Shown here: in pieces, positions 38,388 to 60,037 of the stretch | How positions within the stretch are numbered: the first letter of the stretch is position 1 | How the letters are laid out: each line of letters begins with the position of its first letter | DNA from: a virus | Direction: 5' to 3' (one strand) | Length of the DNA stretch: 64,000 bases | IMG/VR virus record: IMGVR_UViG_3300048694_001005 | Location: 96,001-160,000 of that record | Made by a program: the position numbers and the translations under genes | The notes under the pieces: model-generated | Seen by the model: only the letters and a program-made list of their open reading frames with translations | Database searches by the model: none | What the model was told of the DNA's origin: nothing

Positions 38388-39065
38388 ATGGAAAACAAAA
38401 AAATTTCTGATGCAATACGACAAAGAATTAAGGAGGCTGGCGCATCATTTAATTGCAATGACAATATCAGTCGTTACGTCAAACGTGGTGAGCTTGATCG
38501 TTTGACTGCAGAAGTTGAGGCTAATTTACAAGCGGTATTGGACAGCTTGGTAATTGATACAGCAAACGATCACAATACTCAGGAAACAGCACATAGAGTA
38601 GCAAAGATGTTTGTGCATGAGATCTTTGGCGGGCGTTATCAGCCGCAGCCTAAGATTACTGCGTTCCCAAACGTGACCGCATACGATCAACTTTATGTAA
38701 CAGGACCAATTACAGTACGTAGCACATGTGCTCATCACATGATGCCTATTGTTGGTAAAGCATATATTGGCGTTTTTCCTGGTAAGAACGTAATTGGTCT
38801 AAGTAAGTTTAATCGTATTGCTGATTGGATTGCCAGTAGACCACAGATCCAGGAAGAAATGACCGTGCAGCTGGCCAATGAGGTTGAACGCGTCACAGAA
38901 GCCGAAGGTATCGCAGTGTTGGTACAAGCTGAACATTTTTGCTTAACGCATAGAGGAGTTCGCGAGCACGATAGCGATATGTCTACCAGTATTGTGCGTG
39001 GAATATTGCGCGAAGAACCAGCACTTAAACAGGAATTTTTCAGTATCGTTGGGAGAATGAAATAA
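38388..39065 (+). CDS. folE: GTP cyclohydrolase I
   Basis: ETAHRVAKM; STCAHH; GLSKFNRI; PQIQE; HFCLTHRGV. Confidence 0.95.
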   Translation: MENKKISDAIRQRIKEAGASFNCNDNISRYVKRGELDRLTAEVEANLQAVLDSLVIDTANDHNTQETAHRVAKMFVHEIFGGRYQPQPKITAFPNVTAYDQLYVTGPITVRSTCAHHMMPIVGKAYIGVFPGKNVIGLSKFNRIADWIASRPQIQEEMTVQLANEVERVTEAEGIAVLVQAEHFCLTHRGVREHDSDMSTSIVRGILREEPALKQEFFSIVGRMK

Positions 39066-39066
39066 C

Positions 39067-39627
39067 ATGACTGCCATGGTTCAAATTGGCTACCAAGAAT
39101 ATGTGGGATTGACTGCTGATCTATGCAGGCAAATCGCTAATACAACTTGGCGACCTGACTATATCGTAGGTATTGCACGTGGTGGGTTAATTCCTGCTGT
39201 TTACATGAGTCAATACTTTGATGTGCCCATGCATAGTCTCAAGGTCAGCTTACGCCACGGCGCTGAAGATACCGAAAGCAATCTTTGGATGGCCGAAGAT
39301 GCTTTTGGTTATGTGGACAAGGAAGAACGCGGCGATGAAGTAACGTGGAGCGATATAGAACGTCGCAAAAATATATTGATCGTAGATGATATAAACGACA
39401 CTGGTGCAACGTTTAACTGGATACGTGACGACTGGCAATCTGGTTGTTTGGGTGCAAGGGCCCAGGACATTTGGAATGGTATTTGGGGCGGCAACGTAAG
39501 ATTTGCAGTGTTGGTTAATAATGAAGCAAGCAGTTTTAAGGACATTAACTTCTCGGCTAGAACTGTAAATAAAGCTGATGATCCACAATGGCTAGTCTTT
39601 CCCTGGGAAGATTGGTGGAAAAATTAA
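39067..39627 (+). CDS. Type I phosphoribosyltransferase (xanthine/guanine PRT-like)
   Basis: IVGIARGGLIPA; ILIVDDINDTGAT; WLVFPWE. Confidence 0.9.
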   Translation: MTAMVQIGYQEYVGLTADLCRQIANTTWRPDYIVGIARGGLIPAVYMSQYFDVPMHSLKVSLRHGAEDTESNLWMAEDAFGYVDKEERGDEVTWSDIERRKNILIVDDINDTGATFNWIRDDWQSGCLGARAQDIWNGIWGGNVRFAVLVNNEASSFKDINFSARTVNKADDPQWLVFPWEDWWKN

Positions 39628-39639
39628 AAGGACATAAAC

Positions 39640-40056
39640 ATGGCTATTTGGAAAATCACAAACCTTGAAAAGAAAAATGCAGTAGAAAGACAGTTTTGGA
39701 CTCGAGAAGGAAAAACTATAACTAGGGAAGATGGTTTTAGATGGGGTATTTGGACCTGCGAAAGCGAATCTAAACCCGATATCAATTTGGATAATCCTGA
39801 TGGTTACCAAGTAGGTTTTGGTGAGTGTGATTGGGAAATGGAAGAGATGCAGGATGGGTGTTGGAGTGACATCACATACCCAGAAGATATGACGGACGAA
39901 GAACAAGAAGCATGGCAGACAGCATGGGACGAAGACTTTTTTGAAGGTGTAGAAAAATTGGGATGGATTAATGATGAAACAGAATATTGGATATATGGTC
40001 CCATACAATTGACAAATGAAGATACCGGAGAAACTTATGATGGACAGTCAAATTAA
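39640..40056 (+). CDS. Acidic Trp-rich hypothetical protein
   Basis: 138-aa ORF with SD AAGGA. Confidence 0.6.
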   Translation: MAIWKITNLEKKNAVERQFWTREGKTITREDGFRWGIWTCESESKPDINLDNPDGYQVGFGECDWEMEEMQDGCWSDITYPEDMTDEEQEAWQTAWDEDFFEGVEKLGWINDETEYWIYGPIQLTNEDTGETYDGQSN

Positions 40057-40327
40057 AAAGATTAATGAAATCTTAACAATCACACAGGAAGAATGTGCAG
40101 AAGTTATTCAAGTCATAAGTAAAATACATCGCTTTGGTATTGGACATGAGCATGTTAGTAGTCATCGTGGAATCACTAATACAGAAAAGCTGGAAGAAGA
40201 AGTTGGTGATTTACTGGCTATGATTGATCTGTTAATTGAGAATAAGATCCTGGCTACTGACAAACTAAACGAAGCCAAACAGAAAAAGATTGAAAAATTG
40301 CATGTTTGGTCAGATATTTTTAAATGA
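40037..40327 (+). CDS. MazG-like nucleotide pyrophosphohydrolase
   Basis: TQEECAEVIQ...LEEEVGDLLAM. Confidence 0.8.
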   Translation: MMDSQIKKINEILTITQEECAEVIQVISKIHRFGIGHEHVSSHRGITNTEKLEEEVGDLLAMIDLLIENKILATDKLNEAKQKKIEKLHVWSDIFK

Positions 40328-40761
40328 TTGTATTTTGGTTTTTCTTATGGACACTATGCCTATATTTCGTACATAGATTGGCACATGCTATCCCATTCAT
40401 ACAGACTATACATAACGATCATCATGCCTTTATAGCAAACAATACTCCACCTGTGTGGCAGTGGAACAATTTGCTTTTGTTCAATGATACCTGGCTAAGT
40501 ACATTGGATCTCTGGCTTACCGAAGTGTTACCTACGATTATCTTTGCTTGGTTAACAGGACAGTGGTGGATTATGGTATTTTATTATTTTTGGGCCGCGC
40601 TGTTGCAAGAAAGAATAGAACACAATCCACAATTTGATATCTTTCCAATATTACCTAGTGGATGCTGGCATTTGTTGCATCATGATAATTGCAGGGTTAA
40701 CTTTGGTCCTTTCGTTGTAATATGGGATATAATTTTTGGGACTTACAAATGCTCGCAATAG
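40324..40761 (+). CDS. Sterol desaturase/fatty-acid hydroxylase family membrane protein
   Basis: His boxes HRLAH, HNDHH and HLLHH; NFG..WD.IFGT. Confidence 0.85.
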   Translation: MIVFWFFLWTLCLYFVHRLAHAIPFIQTIHNDHHAFIANNTPPVWQWNNLLLFNDTWLSTLDLWLTEVLPTIIFAWLTGQWWIMVFYYFWAALLQERIEHNPQFDIFPILPSGCWHLLHHDNCRVNFGPFVVIWDIIFGTYKCSQ

Positions 40762-41633
40762 GTCATAATGACTGGTTTCAAATTAGTTTGTCAAAAGGCG
40801 ACATTTCTAATATTCAGTCCCCTTTTACAATTTCTTTCAATTTATCATCAAAAGTGCCTGACATGGATTTTAATTCTGCGGCTGACTATACTGCGCGGAT
40901 AATTAATCAAAAATATAATAATTTACATCTATGTCTCAGTGGAGGCTTAGATAGTGAGTTTGTAGCTAAAGTGCTATTAAGAAACCAAATTCCTTTTACA
41001 CCAGTGGTGGTAAATACGCCACACAATTCTGAAATCTGGTACGCACAAAAATTTTGTTATGAACACAATCTTAAGCCTATAGTTTTTGATTTCTCTAGCA
41101 AAACGCAAGTGCAAAATAACTTTTATATGGGAGATTTAATTTGTTTAGCTTATGAAAAAGCTATTTCAATGAATTTACCAGTAGTTGAAGCACTTATATC
41201 TAATGTTATATCAAATTTATTACGGGATGACTCGATTAACTTAATAACAGGATTTGGAGACCCTTTGCCTATATCAAAAACATATGATGAACCCATGGGC
41301 GAAGTTGTAGAAATTAGTGATCACGATTATTATTTGGAATTGGAATATCAATCAAAACATCCCGGAGCTTTTTTCTCTTTTACTCCGGAACTCTTCAAAT
41401 CAATGTTACAAAATATCGATACAACTCTCAATAGTCAGACAGCTAAGTCAAAGTTATATGACTTGCCGGTTAGACCTAAGTCTTTCTCATCTTTTGAATT
41501 TTGCAAGTACGTACTTGCGTCGCGAAATGCGGTCTATCAAAAAATAAATGAGAAGTTTCGTCGTTCCGACCAGTTGGCGTTTTTACAATTACCTAGATCA
41601 GAAGTTTATCAAATGTTGAGTGTCGATAAATAG
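40749..41633 (+). CDS. PP-loop adenine-nucleotide alpha-hydrolase-like protein
   Basis: LCLSGGLDSEF; lacks the QueC C-terminal Zn-binding Cys cluster; AT-rich. Confidence 0.6.
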   Translation: MLAIGHNDWFQISLSKGDISNIQSPFTISFNLSSKVPDMDFNSAADYTARIINQKYNNLHLCLSGGLDSEFVAKVLLRNQIPFTPVVVNTPHNSEIWYAQKFCYEHNLKPIVFDFSSKTQVQNNFYMGDLICLAYEKAISMNLPVVEALISNVISNLLRDDSINLITGFGDPLPISKTYDEPMGEVVEISDHDYYLELEYQSKHPGAFFSFTPELFKSMLQNIDTTLNSQTAKSKLYDLPVRPKSFSSFEFCKYVLASRNAVYQKINEKFRRSDQLAFLQLPRSEVYQMLSVDK

Positions 41634-41639
41634 ATGTAC

Positions 41640-41712
41640 AGCGGTCTTTTGGCGTCATCCCGCTTTACGAAATTCTGCCGCCTATGCTATAATCTAACAT
41701 AGGAGAAATAAC
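41640..41712 (+). promoter_or_regulatory. Candidate preQ1-I-like riboswitch/translational switch
   Basis: AGCGG/CCGCT stem with a CATC-CC junction; loop GGCG pairs with TGCC/CGCC; CCTATG/CATAGG hairpin occludes SD AGGAG; ATAAATA just upstream; precedes queD. Confidence 0.55.
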
Positions 41713-41889
41713 ATGGCACAAGAACTAACTTACGAAGAATGGCGTTCTCTAAATACTGTAGTAATTGATACAGGTGTGAGCGCAGCATTGAAACAACTGC
41801 ACAACATCGATGCAGACGCTGAGGTTGAATCAGCAATGCGACGAGAATATGAAGCCTATCTCGCTCATGAAACATCTAAGGGAGATTAA
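41713..41889 (+). CDS. Small protein (58 aa) between the riboswitch candidate and queD, absent from the ORF track
   Basis: Hand-translated MAQELTYEEW...TSKGD; SD AGGAG. Confidence 0.65.
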   Translation: MAQELTYEEWRSLNTVVIDTGVSAALKQLHNIDADAEVESAMRREYEAYLAHETSKGD

Positions 41890-41890
41890 T

Positions 41891-42367
41891 ATGGCCAAAT
41901 ACATCAGCACAAAAACCTACAGACAAATCGGACCAGTAGCCTACCGTCAGTGGCGCGCCGATAGTCATTGCAATCTCGTCCATGGATACGCACTGAGTTT
42001 CCACTTTGAGTTTGAATGTGATACTCTGGATGCTAGAAACTGGTGCATGGATTTCGGTGGTCTCAAACCACTCAAAGACAAACTGGAAGAATGGTTTGAT
42101 CATACCCTGCTAGTGGCAGAAGATGATCCTCAGCGCGAAGAATTAATTCGACTAGGCAAGTTAGGACTAGCCAAGATCACTGAAGTGGAAAAGACTGGTT
42201 GCGAAGGTCTAGCGGATTTTCTCTATGAGTATGTAAACACCATTTTCCTGCCGCAATACGGCGCAGCCGAAGCTGAACGTATTTGGTGCTGTAGAGTAGA
42301 AGTTCGTGAAACTGACAGCAACATGGCTATGCGGGTGGGTCATAGGTCGGACGCTGAGTTTGAATAA
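41891..42367 (+). CDS. queD: 6-carboxy-5,6,7,8-tetrahydropterin synthase
   Basis: CNLVHGY; MDFGGLK; FDHTLL; CEGLA; EVRETDSN; SD GGAG. Confidence 0.9.
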   Translation: MAKYISTKTYRQIGPVAYRQWRADSHCNLVHGYALSFHFEFECDTLDARNWCMDFGGLKPLKDKLEEWFDHTLLVAEDDPQREELIRLGKLGLAKITEVEKTGCEGLADFLYEYVNTIFLPQYGAAEAERIWCCRVEVRETDSNMAMRVGHRSDAEFE

Positions 42368-42572
42368 AGAGTTTGTTCTTAAGTGGCTGTCACATGCCAT
42401 CATTGTGGCGGCCACAGTAGCCAATGCATTTGACTTTGTACCCTTAAACAAAGTATTATTTTTACTTGGCTGCGTTTTATGGACTTGGGTAGGTTTGATT
42501 TGGCGGCAACCTAGTTTATGGACACTCAATATATTTTGTGGTTTGATTTACGTTATAGGATTAATTAAATGA
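42360..42572 (+). CDS. Small membrane protein (PnuC-like short family)
   Basis: Hydrophobic helices; probable TTG start overlapping the queD stop (track start 42306). Confidence 0.5.
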   Translation: MNKEFVLKWLSHAIIVAATVANAFDFVPLNKVLFLLGCVLWTWVGLIWRQPSLWTLNIFCGLIYVIGLIK

Positions 42573-42862
42573 AATTGTTTGATCGATGGTTTATGAAAAA
42601 GTTTCGCTGGGCGTGGCAACATAGGCACGATGACGGTATTGAACCAGCAGTGCGTTCAACCGCATCAATTGAAGAGGATAATCATAATCTAACTGATGGC
42701 GTAACCATTTACCTTAAACAAGTTATAGGTGGTAGATTAGTTTCTTTCCGCACTTACGATCGTAAGATGGATGAAAACAACACAAGAACCTATGTTATTA
42801 CAGAAGATCAAAATTTTGAGCTGGAGTTAGGTAAGATTATTACACTGGAGAGCATGAGATAA
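42569..42862 (+). CDS. Hypothetical protein, paralog A
   Basis: GGRLVSFRTYD...ITLESMR. Confidence 0.6.
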   Translation: MKLFDRWFMKKFRWAWQHRHDDGIEPAVRSTASIEEDNHNLTDGVTIYLKQVIGGRLVSFRTYDRKMDENNTRTYVITEDQNFELELGKIITLESMR

Positions 42863-43182
42863 TGGGAAACTGGACTTTTACTGGTTGGTTTAGTAAAAAC
42901 AAAAATAGGAATTTGGTTGGTTCCTCGTCGACAACATCACCTATGGTTTTTATGAATGCTCAAACTGCGGGTCCAACGTCTGATAGAGATAAATTTATCA
43001 ACGCTAATGGAATTACATTTACCGTTTACCCTGCAACTGGTGGTCATATTGTAGAATTTAGATCCTATGACTCTACAATGGATAGATTAACAACACGGTT
43101 GCATGTTATCCCAGAGGGCGAAGAATTCGCTCAACGGATAGCAGAAACTGTTACTTTGGAATGTTTGAGAGGAAAACAATGA
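42862..43182 (+). CDS. Hypothetical protein, paralog B
   Basis: GGHIVEFRSYD...VTLECLR. Confidence 0.6.
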   Translation: MGNWTFTGWFSKNKNRNLVGSSSTTSPMVFMNAQTAGPTSDRDKFINANGITFTVYPATGGHIVEFRSYDSTMDRLTTRLHVIPEGEEFAQRIAETVTLECLRGKQ

Positions 43183-44024
43183 GCAAAATTAAGATTGCAG
43201 AGCTGTTCTACAGTATACAGGGAGAGGGCAGATACATGGGTGTGCCCAGTGTTTTCCTTAGAACCTTTGGTTGTAACTTTACTTGTAGTGGCTTTGGCAT
43301 GCCGATTGGACAAAAGTCCACAGAGCGTGATGCGATTGCAGAACGTATTGATGAATATAAAAATTATAATGAATTACCTTTGGTTTCTACAGGTTGCGAC
43401 AGTTTCGCCAGTTGGGACGTGAGATTTAAACATCTTAGTCCAGTAATAGATACCAATGACATTGCAACAAAAATAATTGATATATTGCCCTACAAGGCCT
43501 GGCGTGATGAGCATTTGGTTATTACTGGCGGTGAGCCACTACTGGGTTGGCAGCGTAGCTATCCAGACTTGTTGAATCATCCATTAATGATCAACCTTAA
43601 AGAACTTACTTTTGAAACTAATGGAACGCAGCCCTTAAGTGACGAATTCGCACAGTATCTAATTGACAAATGGTTGTATCGCAAAGACAGTTTGACTTTT
43701 AGTGTCAGTCCAAAATTGTCGGCATCTGGCGAATGTTGGTGTGACGCTATTAAACCTGAGATTGTAGTGGACTATGAGCGGCATGGTTACACGTATCTTA
43801 AGTTTGTAGTATCTACTGAAATGGATGTCAAAGAAGCATTGCAGGCAGTATCAGAATATCGTGCAGCGGGATTTACGGGTCCGGTATATTTGATGCCAGT
43901 GGGCGGAGTTGAAAGTGTTTATTCACTTAACAATAGGCGGGTTGCAGAGCTAGCTATGAAACATGGGCTACGCTACAGTGACAGATTACAAGTGCCGCTT
44001 TTCAAGAATGCATGGGGAACCTAA
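43179..44024 (+). CDS. queE: 7-carboxy-7-deazaguanine synthase (radical SAM)
   Basis: ELFYSIQGEG; FLRTFGCNFTC...GCDS; ITGGEP; FETNG; SVSPKL; SDRLQV. Confidence 0.9.
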   Translation: MSKIKIAELFYSIQGEGRYMGVPSVFLRTFGCNFTCSGFGMPIGQKSTERDAIAERIDEYKNYNELPLVSTGCDSFASWDVRFKHLSPVIDTNDIATKIIDILPYKAWRDEHLVITGGEPLLGWQRSYPDLLNHPLMINLKELTFETNGTQPLSDEFAQYLIDKWLYRKDSLTFSVSPKLSASGECWCDAIKPEIVVDYERHGYTYLKFVVSTEMDVKEALQAVSEYRAAGFTGPVYLMPVGGVESVYSLNNRRVAELAMKHGLRYSDRLQVPLFKNAWGT

Positions 44025-59670: not shown

Positions 59671-59747
59671 AGGGGTGAGATGCGACGGGAAGCATACCAG
59701 CCTTTGAAGTTGGGTCTTAGTGGGTTCGAATCCCTCCACCCCCGCCA
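59671..59747 (+). tRNA. tRNA-Gln(UUG)
   Basis: Anticodon arm CCAGC-CTTTGAA-GTTGG; TTCGAAT T-loop; encoded CCA; 1-72 mismatch. Confidence 0.85.
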
Positions 59748-59767
59748 AAATGTTAAGTGTTATTTGT

Positions 59768-59854
59768 TCCGGAGTACCCGAGTTGGTAGCAGGGGGCAGA
59801 CTGTTAATCTGTTGCGCGGAAGCGCCATCGCTGGTTCGAGCCCAGCCTCCGGAG
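59768..59854 (+). tRNA. tRNA-Asn(GUU) with a long variable arm, CCA not encoded
   Basis: TCCGGAG/CTCCGGA acceptor; GCAGA-CTGTTAA-TCTGT; GCGC-GGAA-GCGC extra arm; GCTGG-TTCGAGC-CCAGC. Confidence 0.85.
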
Positions 59855-59868
59855 CAAATAACATTTAT

Positions 59869-59944
59869 ACCGTAGAGTCCACCGGGTGGTGATACCTGAC
59901 TGTCTATCAGGTCGCGGCGGGTTCGAGTCCCGTCTACGGTGCCA
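59869..59944 (+). tRNA. tRNA-Asp(GUC)
   Basis: ACCGTAG/CTACGGT; CCTGA-CTGTCTA-TCAGG; CCA. Confidence 0.9.
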
Positions 59945-59950
59945 AAATTT

Positions 59951-60037
59951 GGAGACGTGGCTGAATTGGTAAAAGCGTCGGATTGCTACTCCGAAGACCG
60001 AAAGGTTGCGCAGGTTCGAACCCTGTCGTCTCCGCCA
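59951..60037 (+). tRNA. tRNA-Ser(GCU)
   Basis: GGAGACG/CGTCTCC; TCGGA-TTGCTAC-TCCGA; long variable arm; GCCA. Confidence 0.92.

Follow-up and report, generated by a model that had tools for sequence, protein, structure and literature searches.

The queD operon leader of an uncultured jumbo phage contains a small RNA element in which two covarying helices, P1 and P2, form an H-type pseudoknot, and one strand of this pseudoknot can also pair across the ribosome-binding site (RBS) of the cistron that follows. The element lies at positions 41640–41718 of the stretch of DNA that was analysed (here called the window; 64,000 nt), which represents bases 96001–160000 of the 180.5-kb IMG/VR record IMGVR_UViG_3300048694_001005, the completeness of which is estimated at ~51%. 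The reading we prefer, with a probability of roughly 0.6, is that the element is a cis-acting RNA switch in which a ligand-stabilised knot turns translation ON. A conserved aptamer, mutually exclusive and covarying platform structures and a location in a 5' leader, which are the general marks of a riboswitch, are all present. A first-pass annotation, made from the sequence of the window, had described the site as a candidate variant of the class I preQ1 (preQ1-I) riboswitch exerting feedback control over queD. The motifs that it named (both P1 strands, GGCG, CGCC, CCTATG/CATAGG, the Shine–Dalgarno (SD) sequence and the ATG at 41713 of a 58-aa open reading frame (ORF)) were all found where it had placed them, and as a whole its observation was confirmed while its interpretation was supported in part.

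The pseudoknot was assessed by comparison with related leaders. A protein search with QueD identified 80 viral contigs on which QueD was 82–94% identical, and approximately three-quarters of these closest loci carry a recognisably homologous leader directly upstream of queD. From these, 45 distinct homologous leaders, which were not chosen for P2 pairing, were assembled as alignment A1. A degenerate pattern of conserved letters, run over the viral collection, yielded at least ~75 further genuine elements on more than 70 further contigs, and a second alignment (A2) holds 110 distinct aptamers, including pattern-found elements among the matches listed. P1 and P2 are paired in 95.9% of the cells of A1, compared with 45–58% when the 3' partners were slid by one to three columns. 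The covariation score of A1 was 0.551, against 0.181 for shuffled alignments, and was reached by none of 500 shuffles; as the sequences are related to one another these shuffle statistics overstate the significance, a weakness from which the slid-partner controls are free. Changes on both sides were found in seven of the ten pairs, that is in all five of P2 and in two of P1 (positions 2 and 3), and the covariation among homologous queD leaders on which the first-pass annotation had staked its pseudoknot is therefore present.

P1 is 99% paired in both alignments and was found as AGCGG/CCGCU, AGAGG/CCUCU, AGUGG/CCACU and ACCGG/CCGGU, with GC or CG at position 2, CG, AU or UA at position 3 and GC for the top two pairs in 110/110 elements. 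The versions of P2 include GGCG/CGCC, GGCAU/AUGCC, GACAU/AUGUC, GACGC/GUGUC, GGAC/GUCC, GACUU/AAGUC and GGUGU/ACACU, among others. The statistics of A2 give the same picture as those of A1, and all five P2 columns covary in the larger alignment. On this comparative evidence, which is decisive, P1 and P2 are both real, and the preQ1-I-like H-type pseudoknot that had been drawn in the queD operon leader stands on covariation in 45 and in 110 elements.

P2 in the window consists of the pairs G51–C82, G52–C81, C53–G80 and G54–C79 (numbered by the last two digits of the window coordinates). Two partners for GGCG had been offered in the first-pass annotation; covariation upholds CGCC (41679–82), while the alternative, TGCC (41676–79), is an unsupported register. 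Past a U–C mismatch, UCA may tentatively be paired with the UG of UCUGC, which would lengthen P2 by two pairs (C56–G77 and A57–U76). These positions are paired in 106 of 110 elements and are invariant aside from a sole compensatory variant, UCG/UCCGC, which is common to the related loci L019 and L033; the extension is therefore neither supported nor refuted.

Conservation extends to the unpaired nucleotides. The equivalent of C41659 is invariant in 45/45 and 110/110 aligned elements, lies within a conserved UCA-Y-C upstream of the P1 3' strand and is preceded by U in 76, C in 18 and A in 12 of the 110. The tail (L3) is 13 nt long in 107 of the 110 elements, the window element being among the three with 14 nt. 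L1 opens with U in 51 elements (as in the window), A in 34 and C in 25, and the distance from the P1 5' strand to P2 (L1 plus spacer) varies from 3 to 10 nt. The C-U of L1 was imposed by the search patterns, yet it is present in every element of the QueD-selected loci. Conserved unpaired nucleotides of this kind are as would be expected of a binding pocket or of tertiary contacts.

The 3' strand of P2 can also pair with the RBS. In the minimum free energy (MFE) fold of the window leader the hairpin CCUAUG/CAUAGG spans the SD, and the first two bases of this hairpin are C81 and C82 of the P2 3' strand, an overlap that the first-pass annotation had foreseen. The same fold pairs UGCCG (41676–80) with UGGCA (41714–18) across the start codon, and the SD itself is located at least 19 nt downstream of P2. 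All 47 elements of the window subtype (type A) contain the CCUAUG/CAUAGG hairpin; the stem is invariant in this subtype and so shows no covariation of its own, whereas the functionally equivalent anti-RBS helices of the remaining subtypes do covary. In type B elements the P2 3' strand plus three bases, UG(C/U)CAUC, complements GAUG(G/A)CA at the start codon, and an inner helix of CUU-A-CUC with GAG-GC-AAG covers the SD. The inner helix is nested within the start-codon helix, and the OFF state therefore hides both the SD and the AUG. In type B relatives, for example L017:2220–2295, the inner helix is formed by the conserved stretch AAACUUACUC...GGAGGCAAGAG, located downstream of the knot and ahead of the start codon. 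Smaller groups have ACUCC/GGAGU or UGUCUUC/GGAGACA as the anti-RBS helix. An anti-SD role for the P1 3' strand was also considered and was dropped, as the SD is unchanged where P1 changes.

In 109 of the 110 elements the region of the P2 3' strand can form a helix of 4–8 bp with either the SD or the start codon, and in 101 of the 110 the MFE fold of the platform pairs the P2 3' strand with RBS nucleotides. The RBS complementarity score of the P2 3' segment was 15.2, compared with 10.5 for shuffles and 9.9–10.2 for three other aptamer segments. The start-codon helix is sharply bounded at 7 bp, with 81–100% pairing inside and 5–16% just outside, and it exhibits compensatory changes at −1 (C–G 47, U–A 4, A–U 3, G–C 1) and also at +4 and +6. 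The nucleotides common to P2 and the anti-RBS helix fit both partners (C with G and G in 7/7; A with U and U in four cases). These substitutions indicate that P2 and the anti-RBS helix are both under selection.

Since the P2 3' strand is common to the knot and to the anti-RBS helix, the two folds are mutually exclusive, and formation of the knot should therefore free the ribosome site (an ON switch). The computed means were −4.7 kcal/mol for the P2 duplex and −8.7 for the platform hairpin, which suggests that the knot needs extra stabilisation and that the default state should be OFF. The end-product feedback repression implied by the first-pass annotation is not upheld by this arrangement: the knot takes up the anti-RBS strand rather than the SD and should consequently expose the RBS, the reverse of the wiring in all preQ1 riboswitches described.

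The element is closely associated with queD. The first downstream ORF belongs to one QueD/PTPS cluster in 123 of the 127 pattern-only loci among the matches listed. When loci from the QueD search were pooled with pattern-found loci among the matches listed, giving 144 element-bearing loci, QueD was encoded downstream in 141, FolE upstream in 46 and QueE downstream in 41. Among the collections searched the element was seen only in uncultured phage contigs. It was not found in the seven cultured phages with the nearest queD (ACP17, vB_Ade_ART, X1, BUDD, Phosso, PhiXhv-15 and IME-SM1), blastn of the element against 50,697 phage records gave nothing meaningful, and a pattern scan of bacterial and archaeal genomes produced no genuine element among the 120 matches listed. 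A model of the element, R1, had no match in 151 genomes of the order Burkholderiales or in three single genomes, and a search for a second copy in the 180-kb record returned one element only, that of the window (59 bits). The motif description was not found in full-text literature searches. At three loci (L005, L007 and L008) QueD is 90% identical and the knot is absent, with an A/T-rich promoter-like leader upstream of queD (TATTATAAT); the absence of the knot suggests that some lineages can do without the switch or have put something else in its place.

Class I preQ1 riboswitches are defined by an H-type knot, a G–C pocket floor closing P1 and a strictly conserved C specificity base, located 5' of the P1 3' strand after U (type I) or A (types II and III). 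Their L1 opens with a conserved U that reads N9-H of preQ1, and their L3 is A-rich, its last A lying beside the P2 3' strand and reading the ligand edge; their knot buries the SD or favours a terminator, giving an OFF response (PMC11625349). Members of the class, which comprises types I–III, include those of B. subtilis (queC), T. tengcongensis, C. antarcticum and E. coli. The phage element is alike in being a small H-type pseudoknot with a 5-bp P1 (often AGAGG/CCUCU in the phage relatives), a G–C closing pair (GC in 110/110), a C directly 5' of the P1 3' strand, mostly after U as in type I, and an A-containing tail after P1, and in its place within the leader of a gene of the 7-deazaguanine pathway. 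It is unlike them in that P2 is a longer canonical helix of 4–5 bp, possibly plus 2, that L1 is longer and variable with an opening nucleotide that is not conserved, and that the 13-nt tail ends in UCUGC rather than in an adenine next to P2. That the tail departs from the preQ1-I consensus had been noted in the first-pass annotation, and the departure at the opening of L1 can be added. In the phage element, moreover, P2 takes its 3' strand from the anti-RBS sequence and not from the SD, so that the predicted logic is ON.

Searches with the families of Rfam 15, at gathering thresholds and at E<=10, returned only tRNAs and noise from the window, from a 501-nt region around the element and from seven relatives. 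RF00522 (PreQ1), the model against which the first-pass annotation had proposed to check the element, had no match at E<=10 in the 501-nt region (41450–41950) or in the seven relatives; over the whole 180-kb record it again had none at the element at E<=10, and the best scores elsewhere were 8.5–16 bits, the gathering threshold being 39 bits. In the reciprocal test R1, which scores the window element at 59 bits, found 0/19 genuine preQ1-I elements fetched with RF00522 from genomes of the order Paenibacillales. By the available tests the phage element parallels preQ1-I but is not a member, and membership of that class was not sustained.

The SAM-II, SAM-V, guanidine-III, preQ1-II and fluoride riboswitches resemble the element in that their aptamers are likewise compact pseudoknots and regulate translation by way of RBS accessibility, and the guanidine-III riboswitch probably acts as an ON switch too. 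Their Rfam families were unmatched at E<=10, however, and their genes and conserved nucleotides differ. Glutamine riboswitches have been described in Melnitz-like phages and pelagiphages, in a report that calls riboswitches a rare feature in phages (PMC9004378). These are likewise metabolite-type RNA switches carried by a phage for its own genes, but they are copies of known bacterial classes, whereas the queD element is without a bacterial counterpart in the genomes searched.

In the mechanism that we propose the sensor would be the H-type pseudoknot, with its 5-bp P1, 4–5-bp P2, invariant C and fixed-length tail. The P2 3' strand CGCC, with its neighbours UGCCGCCUAUG, would alternatively pair with the SD (CAUAGG) and the region of the start codon (UGGCA). 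A small molecule presenting a guanine-like face would sit as ligand at the P1/P2 junction, like preQ1 in class I, and would stabilise the knot; the stabilised knot would withdraw the anti-RBS strand and so turn ON translation of the 58-aa ORF and of the coupled queD. A guanine-like Watson–Crick face is suggested by the invariant C and is common to 7-deazaguanines, guanine and pterins, and the ligand may be a compound of the 7-deazaguanine pathway, a pterin such as the QueD substrate, or guanine. The ON wiring speaks against simple end-product repression and fits a precursor or substrate, for example 7,8-dihydroneopterin triphosphate (the QueD substrate), or a signal. Ligand binding, the identity of the ligand and the direction of regulation in vivo are what we infer here. 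A more specific proposal, which is tentative and to which we would give somewhat less than even odds, is that the element represents a phage-specific riboswitch class, derived from preQ1-I or convergent with it, that acts as a translational ON switch for QueD, as the committed enzyme of a 7-deazaguanine pathway with which the phage would modify its DNA, and that senses a precursor or intermediate rather than the end product; under this proposal the candidates may be 7,8-dihydroneopterin triphosphate, 7-carboxy-7-deazaguanine (CDG), preQ0 or 7-amido-7-deazaguanine.

The aptamer tail and platform loop of type A elements also appear to have a sigma-70-type promoter written into them, with hexamers in the A/U-rich tail and the hairpin loop that had not been spotted in the first-pass annotation. 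In the window this putative promoter is the top promoter-like site of a 2.5-kb scan (10/12 matches, plus TG), although the scan alone is not significant, with 8 sites found and 8.1 expected. The −10 and −35 hexamers co-occur, 17–18 nt apart, in 41 of the 47 type A elements, and they vary at tolerant positions only. The −10, in the hairpin loop, follows TAnnnT (TATAAT, TAAAAT, TATTAT, TACAAT and TATACT), and the −35, in the tail, has one or two mismatches to TTGACA (TTTACA, TCGACA, TTGATA and TATACA). The four type A elements without the −10 are also without the −35, and a promoter upstream of P1 was found in just two of the 47. Transcripts from the embedded promoter would start near 41699–41701, within the 3' arm of the hairpin that masks the SD; they would thus escape the switch, and only mRNA reading through from the upstream folE...PP-loop genes would remain under its control. 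In 15 of 60 type B loci a near-consensus promoter (TTGACA-16/17-TATAAT) ends 6–9 nt before P1, which would make the knot the very 5' end of the mRNA, and 63 type B elements retain the knot without any internal promoter. A reading of P1 and the following UUU as a terminator was rejected, as there is no terminator-like site on the plus strand; the loop of P1 is 15 nt long, and P1 is followed by no more than three U residues.

Several observations weigh against a ligand-dependent ON switch. As a single sequence the leader folds no better than chance (MFE −18 kcal/mol, z-score −0.29; 70/200 shuffles fold as well or better), and the kinship of the sequences has to be set against the shuffle statistics given above. 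P2 is shorter in type A, to which the window belongs, and is 73% paired in a fixed register, compared with 94% in type B; these figures indicate that P2 is still kept in type A, less tightly. In preQ1-I the opening of L1 is a conserved U that reads the ligand, whereas here it varies, and the tail ends in UCUGC and not in an adenine beside P2. The conserved loops might be there for tertiary packing or for binding a protein instead of a small molecule. ON wiring of a biosynthetic gene would be unexpected if the ligand were the end product of the pathway, and the embedded promoter would permit queD expression without the switch. A 2024 review of the preQ1-I family mentions neither phages nor activating members (PMC11625349).

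Other explanations of the same data were weighed. That the leader acts as DNA only, as an intergenic promoter possibly followed by a weak terminator, with the RNA pairings incidental, is barely credible. The site TTTACG-18-TGcTATAAT is indeed the best local promoter-like site, with hexamers kept in 41/47 type A elements, but a promoter cannot explain the compensatory changes in P1 and P2 or the 63 type B knots that lack an internal one; no terminator-like site was found, and the covariation refutes this explanation as the sole one. A diverged but ordinary preQ1-I member, binding preQ1 or preQ0 and repressing queD by feedback, would account for the shared architecture and P1 consensus (AGAGG/CCUCU in many relatives; the genuine preQ1-I elements fetched read AGAGGUUCGCGAACUCCCUCUAUAAAAAACUAAG), for the C at the specificity position and for the que gene downstream. 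We regard it as highly unlikely in view of the outcome of the searches in both directions (RF00522 finding nothing at the element at E<=10, R1 finding 0/19 preQ1-I elements), the inverted logic, in which the P2 3' strand is anti-RBS rather than SD, the unconserved L1 nucleotide equivalent to U6 and the different tail.

Two exclusive covarying structures, with an OFF hairpin whose computed stability exceeds that of the P2 duplex, would also suit a ligand-independent kinetic timer or thermometer. In such a device the knot would form first, leaving the RBS open on nascent or fresh mRNA or at certain temperatures, and the anti-RBS hairpin would follow; the conserved loops and fixed tail could represent triple-helix packing, as in other H-type pseudoknots. 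The strict tie to the enzyme gene of one pathway and the invariant C at the position where preQ1-I reads its ligand are better explained by a metabolite, and a device without one is judged unlikely. Protein-bound pseudoknots are known in phage mRNA leaders, for example that of T4 gene 32, and the conserved single-stranded UCA-YC and UCUGC could be the site at which a pathway enzyme or regulator of the phage binds a translational operator and stabilises the knot or the hairpin. No gene for an RNA-binding protein accompanies the element consistently, however; QueD alone is near-universal, and FolE and QueE are found in about one-third of the loci, as far as the available flanks extend. An element this small, with a junction like that of preQ1-I, is more readily reconciled with a small ligand, and a protein operator seems decidedly unlikely. 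A metabolite-stabilised ON switch is the reading that we retain.

The element is surrounded by a 7-deazaguanine gene module on the plus strand (window 38388–44024; Table 1). The closest Atlas clusters of the 303-aa PP-loop protein are viral, with some members QueC or Asn_synthase, and a PDB sequence search with this protein gave no match. The stop of the 58-aa ORF is 1 nt upstream of the queD ATG (41891). This ORF is restricted to the window and L001 (91% identical), an unrelated 88-aa ORF is found at the same spot in L002, and in most relatives the leader adjoins queD itself without an intervening ORF. The small ORFs that follow the element retain an AUGGCA start, the partner of the anti-RBS strand. 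Downstream, another 88-aa ORF (42306–42572) matches DUF6552 (5.8e-10) and overlaps the 3' end of queD in a different frame, though its actual start codon probably lies further downstream. A cluster of three tRNA genes was detected elsewhere in the window (59671–60034; Rfam tRNA, 38–65 bits).

With FolE, QueD, QueE and a PP-loop enzyme resembling QueC/Asn-synthase, the encoded pathway has CDG, 7-amido-7-deazaguanine or preQ0 as its indicated products; the phosphoribosyltransferase-like and MazG-like proteins are unusual companions of such a module. No Pfam match to TGT/DpdA was found in the phage record, nor in five large records of related phages, of which three are 98–100% complete at 353–400 kb, and this hints at base- or nucleotide-level handling rather than base exchange in DNA.

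Table 1. Features of the queD leader and the surrounding gene module (window coordinates).
Feature	Position	Strand	Details
FolE	38388–39065	+	PF01227 at 3.6e-49; phrog_2197
Purine-type phosphoribosyltransferase-like protein	39067–39627	+	
MazG-like nucleoside triphosphate (NTP) pyrophosphohydrolase	40016–40327	+	
303-aa PP-loop protein	40722–41633	+	Weak Asn_synthase match
Gap containing the element, 79 nt	41634–41712	+	
P1 5' strand AGCGG	41640–41644	+	Partner 41660–64
L1 loop UCUUUU	41645–41650	+	Conserved N-C-U, then variable-length spacer
P2 5' strand GGCG	41651–41654	+	Possible extension to 41657: U55 mismatch, C56, A57
L2 (U, C)	41658–41659	+	C41659, directly 5' of P1 3' strand, candidate specificity base
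P1 3' strand CCGCU	41660–41664	+	
L3 tail UUACGAAAUUC then UGC	41665–41678	+	A/U-rich; invariant A residues, conserved 3'-terminal UCUGC
P2 3' strand CGCC	41679–41682	+	Common to anti-RBS structure; covaries with 41651–54
Putative embedded sigma-70-type promoter	41664–41693	+	−35 TTTACG 41664–69, 18-nt spacer, TG 41685–86, −10 TATAAT 41688–93
Anti-RBS (OFF) structure	41676–41703	+	CCUAUG 41681–86 : CAUAGG 41698–703 across SD; MFE fold
SD AGGAG and start codon ATG of the putatively gated cistron	41701–41715	+	SD 41701–05; ATG 41713–15
58-aa ORF	41713–41889	+	No family found
queD-like gene (PTPS family)	41891–42367	+	PF01242 at 7.4e-16; phrog_2389 at 3.6e-39
DUF6552 ORF plus two small ORFs	42306–43182	+	
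QueE-like radical-SAM gene	43161–44024	+	

Riboswitches are a rarity in phages, and the examples reported so far copy bacterial classes (PMC9004378). If the present reading is true, the queD element would be a riboswitch class known so far from phages only, yet widespread among them, that controls the entry enzyme of a pathway used by phages to hypermodify their DNA. Should the ON wiring also be true, the preQ1-I fold would gain its first activating relative in nature. The overlap of promoter and aptamer in type A would be an unusual case of two codes in one sequence. At ~45 nt the aptamer is compact and well sampled, which makes it an easy subject in vitro and an attractive tool, and its ligand would reveal which metabolite these jumbo phages monitor while the guanine pool is being rebuilt.

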